The notes under the pieces: model-generated
The model's database searches: none
Told to the model about the DNA's origin: nothing
What the model saw: only the letters and a program-made list of their open reading frames with translations
Part shown: piece after piece, positions 9,428 to 9,663 of the stretch
Numbering within the stretch: position 1 is the stretch's first letter
How the letters are laid out: each line of letters starts with the position of its first letter
Position numbers and translations under genes: made by a program
Assembly: GCF_003334765.1 (NCBI RefSeq)
Contig: NZ_QOWT01000059.1
Origin: Escherichia coli
GTDB lineage: Bacteria; Pseudomonadota; Gammaproteobacteria; Enterobacterales; Enterobacteriaceae
DNA: 9,740 bases
Strand: one strand, 5' to 3'

Positions 9428-9471
9428 GCGGAGTGCATCAAAAGTTAATTATCACGTAGTTATATTAATAT

Positions 9472-9490
9472 GAGAATGGTTATCATTACA
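9472..9490 (-). promoter_or_regulatory. Fur-box-like operator in the fecIR promoter region
   Basis: Plus strand GAGAATGGTTATCATTACA matches the 19-bp Fur consensus GATAATGATAATCATTATC at 14 of 19 positions. It lies 45-65 bp upstream of the fecI ATG in an AT-rich region with sigma-70-like hexamers (TTGTAA, 17 nt, TTAATA on the minus strand). Confidence 0.55.
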
Positions 9491-9663
9491 ATTGGGAATA
9501 AAATTGTTTCCAATAGACATTTTTAACATGTTGTTTTTCTAAGTGTTATAAGGTAGGTATAAAATGGGATGGAGCCTCTGCTTCTGGCATGTGTCGGTCA
9601 GAATGACTCATGATGTGGTCTGCTATTATTGACATCCTCACTGCCCTAAAGGATGGGGATTTC

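Follow-up and report, generated by a model that had tools for sequence, protein, structure and literature searches.

The Fur operator of the Escherichia coli fecIR genes is already known and experimentally established. Chen et al. (2007; PMC2189734) place fecI among eleven footprinted E. coli Fur sites, which served to define the Fur model of this species, and tabulate for it the DNase footprint of Angerer and Braun (1998) at NC_000913.2 4516300 to 4516340. In their information-theory analysis, the strongest site at fecI (23.1 bits) is located at position -51 relative to the start codon and forms part of an overlapping cluster of seven (PMC2189734). Zdziarski et al. (2010; PMC2928814) performed a Fur EMSA on a 45-mer derived from the fecIR promoter and described a patient-acquired T-to-C change which weakened binding of the Fur tetramer and resulted in eight-fold-higher fecIR promoter activity, while a second, independent patient isolate harbored a SNP 23 nt further upstream (PMC2928814). 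Furthermore, both fecI and fecR are members of the Fur-2 iModulon (PMC10164565).

The present analysis concerns a 9,740-bp stretch of E. coli DNA (here termed the window) in which the region preceding fecI is bordered by the end of an IS1 element. Positions 9428 to 9663 of the window are, with high confidence, best explained as the native control region of fecIR. The operator within this region is a rediscovery of a textbook site.

Organization of the fec locus

Based on its ORF list, the window represents the E. coli ferric citrate locus, which is encoded on the minus strand and comprises fecE, fecD, fecC, and fecB, followed by fecA (5545 to 7869), fecR (7956 to 8909), and fecI (8906 to 9427, minus strand; ATG at 9427..9425), the last of which specifies the ECF sigma factor. 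The fecI assignment is additionally derived from the RefSeq annotation of strains GE3 and K-12, whose sequences are identical and near-identical, respectively, to that of the window. Across the fecI end of the window (9300 to 9740), identity to the E. coli GE3 chromosome is 100% and that to K-12 is 99.5%, the latter differing at two bases, 9461 and 9496, both of which are located outside the 7-1-7 core of the Fur site described below. In the RefSeq annotation of both strains, fecI is preceded by ykiE and then by an IS1F-family transposase gene, each on the plus strand.

Inverted-repeat detection in the GE3 locus, coupled with annotation, positions the left inverted repeat (IRL) of an IS1F-type IS1 at 9664..9686 (plus strand). 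In the identical GE3 locus, the element is of the IS1F type and measures 766 bp, and its two 23-nt terminal arms, the left one of which reads GGTAATGCTGCCAACTTACTGAT, are 87% complementary (L002 12365-12387 and 13108-13130, where L002 12365 corresponds to window position 9664). Matches to thousands of IS1 copies elsewhere start at 9664 or a few bases from it, and the element displays both the ~23-bp inverted repeat with a GGT(G/A)ATG start and the inward-directed insA/insB' frames of IS1F. The IS1 runs beyond the end of the window, with the GTG start codon of insA-7 located at 9719. The IS1F transposase gene, annotated by RefSeq on the plus strand from 9719, is interrupted by an internal stop in K-12, where it counts as a pseudogene, and is broken into fragments in GE3. 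A promoter scan identified a promoter-like site at 9671..9698 on the plus strand (CTGCCA, 16-nt spacer, TATGAT), which is directed inward, away from fecI, and which we take to be the insA promoter (pIRL) residing in the IRL.

With the fecI start at 9427 and the IS1 end at 9664, the intergenic region (9428 to 9663) encompasses 236 bp. The first-pass annotation of this DNA, which was made from the sequence alone, had placed the IS1 end approximately 236 bp upstream of the fecI start, and this spacing is corroborated by the fecI ORF (8906 to 9427) and the position of the IRL.

The Fur operator and the predicted fecIR promoter

Among all 9,740 bases of the window, the best match to the 19-mer Fur consensus GATAATGATAATCATTATC is located at 9472 to 9490, with 4 mismatches on the fecI-sense strand (15/19 matching) and 5 on the plus strand. 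Of Markov simulations modeled on either the entire window or its AT-rich intergenic portion, 0.4% yielded a top match with ≤4 mismatches, and, because the fecI site itself has 4 mismatches, a scan of the whole window at ≤3 mismatches returned no 19-mer site. The 7-1-7 Fur motif TGATAATNATTATCA has a single match in the window, at 9471 to 9485 with 2 mismatches, where 0.03 matches are expected by chance and where 6 of 200 shuffles contained one. The 19-mer at 9472 to 9490 corresponds to the usual composite of two 7-1-7 sites, with centers at 9478 and 9484. The Fur site that the first-pass annotation had suggested at 9472..9490 is thus confirmed, both as the top-ranking 19-mer match and through the unique 7-1-7 match with which it overlaps.

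When the published data are placed on window coordinates, with the fecI ATG at 9427 as the anchor, the DNase footprint extends from 9469 to 9509, the 23.1-bit site falls at 9478, i.e., the center of the 7-1-7 site at 9471 to 9485, and the EMSA 45-mer covers 9452 to 9496. The de-repressing T-to-C SNP is located at 9469 and the second patient SNP at 9492. The Fur operator core was assigned to 9462 to 9493 (without strand), an interval which holds the 7-1-7 site, the 19-mer, and both SNP positions. Iron repression of fecIR, as had been proposed from the sequence, is borne out by the published footprint, the EMSA, the de-repressing SNP, and membership of the Fur-2 iModulon. Since a SNP in the operator is by itself sufficient for eight-fold de-repression, Fur control is considered to be dominant. 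A second published Fur footprint of the locus is located upstream of fecA and maps to approximately 7921 to 7958, where the 7-1-7 scan returned a 4-mismatch match (7941 to 7955).

The sole minus-strand sigma-70-like site identified by the promoter scan in 9300 to 9740 consists of TTCTCA and GATAAT, separated by a 17-nt spacer (9/12 matches). The predicted -35 hexamer, TTCTCA (9471..9476, minus strand), is located inside the Fur operator, while the position of the predicted -10 hexamer, GATAAT (9448..9453, minus strand), is occupied by a -10-like hexamer in the fec loci of other genera. The previously noted overlap between the Fur site and sigma-70-like hexamers is therefore substantiated by the predicted -35 (9476..9471). 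An alternative pair, TTGTAA (9491..9486) and TAATAT with an 18-nt spacer, represents a loose fit, and the exact fecIR hexamers and start site given here are to be read as predictions.

It is proposed that the predicted sigma-70 promoter, with its -35 at 9476..9471 and its -10 at 9453..9448, is overlaid by the Fur operator core at 9462 to 9493. In the presence of iron, Fe2+-Fur would occupy the operator as two dimers, thus covering the -35 region and blocking RNA polymerase, while in the absence of iron fecIR would be transcribed, and FecI would then activate fecABCDE upon the sensing of ferric citrate. All of the elements required for this control would be contained within ~67 bp of the fecI start codon, and the IS1F at 9664, which faces away from fecI, would have no detectable role in fecIR expression.

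Two further observations relate to this promoter and the adjoining start of fecI. In E. coli strain AR_0085 (L004 2651-4000), an IS3-family (IS2-like) element has inserted inside the fecI -10, flanked by a 5-bp duplication, ATTAT, which corresponds to window positions 9448 to 9452. This element parts fecI from its Fur-controlled promoter and, unlike IS1, represents a real natural case of an insertion sequence altering the fecIR promoter. In addition, Adams et al. mapped a minus-strand RNA 3' end to the equivalent of window position 9416, 11 nt past the fecI start codon, and a second, under another condition, to approximately 9340, ~87 nt into fecI (PMC7815308). These RNA 3' ends hint that transcription terminates prematurely, or that the RNA is processed, near the beginning of fecI.

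Conservation of the control region

Scanning a single genome for each species yielded 56 fecI loci. Upstream similarity to the window always stops at 9492 to 9494 in 36 chromosomal fec loci from other genera, encompassing Kluyvera, Citrobacter, Enterobacter, Klebsiella, Raoultella, Salmonella diarizonae, Photorhabdus, and Pectobacterium. Alignment of these 36 loci and four Erwinia/Pantoea loci across the 103 bases before the start codon (40 loci in total) revealed a near-invariant block, ATTGTAATGATAACCATTCTCATATTAAtAT, which corresponds to window positions 9493..9462 in the fecI-sense orientation. Upstream of this block the aligned sequences are completely unrelated, while a -10-like hexamer is retained at 9453..9448. 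Each of 35 loci of other genera contains a single copy of a 28-mer from the block, always at the same distance.

A similar degree of conservation is apparent on pLVPK-type Klebsiella plasmids, whose fecI is 86.2% identical to that of the window overall and 72.4% identical at third-codon positions, while 9462 to 9495 is identical at 34/34 bases. The operator is, by this measure, conserved beyond the neutral expectation at orthologous loci. As similarity ends at ~9493, with unrelated sequence beyond, the control region is compact, comprising ~67 bp and terminating ~170 bp before IS1; the remaining ~170 bp, beyond ~9494, consists of lineage-specific sequence.

The IS1 element as an inherited boundary of the fec island

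The fecI upstream region was present in 2,751 of 5,426 complete E. coli genomes, and the same fec/IS1 junction was detected in 2,699 of these 2,751 fec-positive genomes (~98%), using a junction query that is coverable only by a junction-spanning match. The far side of IS1F is variable, being of the K-12 type (IS1F-yjhU) in 357 genomes and of the GE3 type in 2,065, with distal junctions at L001 4133/4134 and L002 13130/13131. Neither GE3 nor K-12 displays a 9-bp target duplication around the element: the sequence to its left reads GGGGATTTC, and that to its right reads TCCTCCCGA in GE3 but GACCATGTT in K-12. The lack of a duplication is indicative of rearrangement or deletion at the element following insertion and does not argue against its identity as IS1. 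When considered with the shared fec-side junction and the variable far side, it marks IS1 as an old border of the fec island, where rearrangements took place later. IS1F is an old, defective element which has been passed down along with fec in nearly all fec-positive E. coli strains and is no recent adaptive insertion.

Three types of fec locus without IS1 were identified. The first is represented by approximately 1,000 Klebsiella-type plasmids, which are 94 to 95% identical to the window up to ~9659, and the second by E. coli IncF plasmids, which are 98.8% identical to exactly 9663 and continue into unrelated DNA; on one such IncF plasmid, NZ_OU342920.1 (L005 3414/3415), homology ends at the equivalent of 9663 and no IS1 follows. 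The third type is E. coli strain AF34 (L006 3120-3135), in which GGTAATG, 7 nt from the start of the IS1 repeat, is all that is left of the element, the rest having been lost together with ~70 bp of the far flank (~72 bp by direct count). AF34 was considered as an empty site, or preinsertion allele, for IS1, and this was rejected, the 7 nt of IS1 left behind marking it as a secondary deletion.

All three types retain promoter and operator as well as the ykiE region. The IS1-free loci thus possess the same upstream sequence as the window to 9659 to 9663, an observation which the first-pass annotation had itself named as evidence against the role in fecIR that it suggested for IS1. A native, Fur-controlled fecIR region, bordered by an IS1 which is an inherited boundary without a detectable role, is in our assessment very likely to be the correct description of this locus.

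Assessment of a possible IS1 effect on fecIR

Two routes by which IS1 could modulate fecIR had been put forward, namely, outward promoter activity and read-through. The terminal repeats of IS1 carry an outward-directed -35, and IS1 hybrid promoters are documented, for example, at afaA in ST131 (PMC8764528; PMC9330008; Prentki 1986, as cited therein); such a -35 hexamer, TTGGCA, is indeed present in the IRL of the window on the minus strand (9677..9672). Combined with the native flank, it could form a hybrid promoter providing Fur-independent or additional transcription toward fecIR. Its activity would, however, depend on a correctly placed -10, 16 to 18 bp beyond the -35 (PMC8764528; PMC9330008), and IS1 insertions with a neutral or negative effect are also on record (PMC8764528). 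The flank does not provide a usable -10: at spacers of 15, 16, 17, 18, and 19 nt, the hexamers following TTGGCA match TATAAT at 0, 3, 1, 2, and 1 of 6 positions, respectively. The best candidate, CATCCT (3/6, spacer of 16 nt), keeps the two key positions A2 and T6, and its combination with TTGGCA could be a very weak promoter. The promoter scan called no minus-strand promoter near the fec/IS1 junction. Moreover, a transcript initiated at this position must cross 220 nt, including a palindrome remnant and the Fur-occupied operator, and the magnitude of de-repression attained by the operator SNP alone also weighs against a contribution from IS1. The outward promoter proposed in the first-pass annotation is consequently unsupported, and we judge a functional hybrid promoter at this junction to be highly improbable. 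Provided that strain 83972 carries the common junction, the 485-bp reporter fragment employed in the patient isolate study (PMC2928814) probably contained part of IS1, and the published activities may, therefore, include IS1 sequence.

Read-through from the genes of IS1 itself into fecI is excluded, as insA and its pIRL promoter are located on the plus strand and are directed away from fecI, leaving this second proposal equally without support. A remaining variant is that minus-strand transcription from genes beyond IS1, such as yjhU in K-12, continues into fecIR. In K-12, yjhU and fecI do occupy the same strand, and no terminator-like site was found in 9300 to 9740. IS1 insertions are classically polar in both orientations, which counts against passage along the minus strand. 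Because the DNA beyond IS1 varies with the lineage (357 genomes with the K-12 type and 2,065 with the GE3 type), any read-through partner is not conserved, whereas the fec control region is. In addition, Term-seq assigns minus-strand 3' ends to both yjhU and fecI and gives no sign of a continuous transcript (PMC7815308). The sole documented transcript crossing the junction runs in the opposite direction, on the plus strand, with its 3' end at 9671 (PMC7815308). Read-through from genes beyond IS1 is, in our view, extremely improbable. We infer that IS1 exerts no effect on fecIR, although a small effect would still be compatible with the data.

ykiE, the palindrome remnant, and transcription toward IS1

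The intergenic stretch also accommodates ykiE, which was not mentioned in the first-pass annotation. This 22-codon gene (9564 to 9632, plus strand; RefSeq annotation and translation) is divergent from fecI, reads toward IS1, and is preceded by a Shine-Dalgarno-like sequence, AAGGTAGG, at 9550 to 9557, six bases before its ATG. ykiE is among 31 small ORFs validated by western blotting (PMC8921622), and ykiE-insA-7 was named as a potential uORF pair by Adams et al. (2021; PMC7815308); the text of the Weaver 2019 preprint does not mention the locus. An intact ORF is confined to E. coli-type fec loci; Klebsiella-type plasmids carry a frameshifted version of 16 codons, and pLVPK-type plasmids and other genera lack it. 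Preservation of the ORF is, therefore, not observed across fec lineages, and a conserved functional peptide was rejected as an explanation for ykiE on these grounds.

A plus-strand RNA 3' end was mapped by Term-seq to NC_000913.3 4518479, 48 nt before insA-7 and without a Rho-dependent flag (PMC7815308). On the window, this end corresponds to 9671, eight bases inside the IS1 repeat, the coordinate convention having been verified with the help of that table's fecI entry. As the 3' end is located inside the IS1 end, documented transcription crosses the fec/IS1 junction in the outward direction. Folding of this region predicts a stem-loop at 9622..9671 on the plus strand (-18.4 kcal/mol; z, -2.9), the left arm of which is native while the right arm combines native sequence with the first 8 nt of IS1. 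The 3' base of this predicted minimum-free-energy stem coincides exactly with the mapped RNA 3' end at 9671.

Alignment and folding additionally identified a degenerate, truncated palindrome at 9631..9663 (no strand), whose right arm is cut off at ~9659 to 9663, beside IS1. At the same position, IS1-free Klebsiella-type fec plasmids (L003 4381-4420) harbor a perfect hairpin with a 19-bp stem, TTGACATCCTCCCCGCCC-TTTA-GGGCGGGGAGGATGTCAA, which folds at -41.5 kcal/mol (z, -9), as opposed to a weak structure in the window, where the left arm has decayed by mutation and the truncated right arm abuts IS1. The loss of the right arm is attributable to IS1 or to a deletion associated with it. Only lineages of the E. 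coli and Klebsiella types possess the palindrome. Its interpretation as a terminator insulating fecI was rejected, since no T-run follows it on either strand. A permissive E-value search of 9350 to 9740 against Rfam returned no match, and no known RNA family thus explains the ykiE or hairpin region.

These features permit a reading which is compatible with the main explanation and in which the coupling between fec and IS1 runs in reverse, a candidate plus-strand promoter in the Fur operator driving a ykiE transcript into the IS1 end, such that ykiE, and possibly transcription into insA-7, would respond to iron. The promoter scan located a plus-strand promoter-like site within the operator (TTAATA at 9465 to 9470, 16-nt spacer, TACAAT at 9487 to 9492), and the validated translation of ykiE (PMC8921622), together with the uORF-flagged plus-strand 3' end at 9671 (PMC7815308) at the base of the predicted stem, is in line with such a transcript. 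However, conservation of the operator hexamers is confounded with Fur binding, and an alternative promoter, discerned by reading the sequence, is located nearer to ykiE (TTAACA at 9523 to 9528, 18-nt spacer, TATAAG). The frameshifted or missing ykiE of other fec lineages likewise weighs against this reading, as does the IS1F pseudogene, whose internal stop renders any effect on transposition moot. On balance, iron-responsive transcription from the operator toward IS1 is considered unlikely. Its most specific form, in which the Fur operator would act as a bidirectional control point and the iron-responsive ykiE transcript would end at the hybrid native/IS1 stem, is more doubtful still. If true, a fixed IS1 end would have been recruited to form the 3' end of a small-ORF transcript under iron control, or, alternatively, a shortage of iron would cause transcription to proceed into IS1.

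Comparison with known Fur operators and IS1 hybrid promoters

The native, Fur-controlled reading of the fecIR region provides a clarifying negative with respect to IS1: the control region is compact and extraordinarily conserved, and the IS1 end, which faces away, is situated far beyond its limits. The fec/IS1 junction is viewed as an inherited island boundary and not as a regulatory innovation, and the presence of IS1F beside fecI is already annotated in K-12. For phenotypes associated with fec, such as urinary tract adaptation and cefiderocol susceptibility, the positions to watch are 9462 to 9493 and insertions in the promoter (as in AR_0085), rather than IS1.

Relative to the K-12 fecI operator (Angerer and Braun 1998; PMC2189734), the site in the window is the same, with the footprint, the top-scoring site, and the EMSA probe all contained within 9452 to 9509. 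No difference of substance was apparent, the 19-mer being centered at 9481 and the strongest published site at 9478, an offset of 3 bp which is expected between a 19-mer and its component 7-1-7 sites. The operators of fepA-fes, entC, cir, tonB, fhuA, and fecA in E. coli possess the same overlapping arrays of GATAAT-like hexamers over the -35 and -10 and are likewise repressed by Fe2+-Fur. Unlike these, the fecI operator regulates an ECF sigma factor and its anti-sigma partner, and Fur thereby controls transport genes both directly (fecA) and indirectly (Angerer and Braun 1998).

With the IS1 hybrid promoters described for afaA in ST131 (PMC8764528) and for blaTEM and acrEF (PMC9330008), the fecI junction shares the outward TTGGCA facing the downstream gene. 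It differs from these cases in that no -10 is present at the right spacing and in that the IS1 end is located 236 bp from the start codon, ~170 bp past a complete, repressor-controlled promoter belonging to fecIR itself. Furthermore, the fecI junction is ancestral and fixed and does not represent a recent adaptive insertion.
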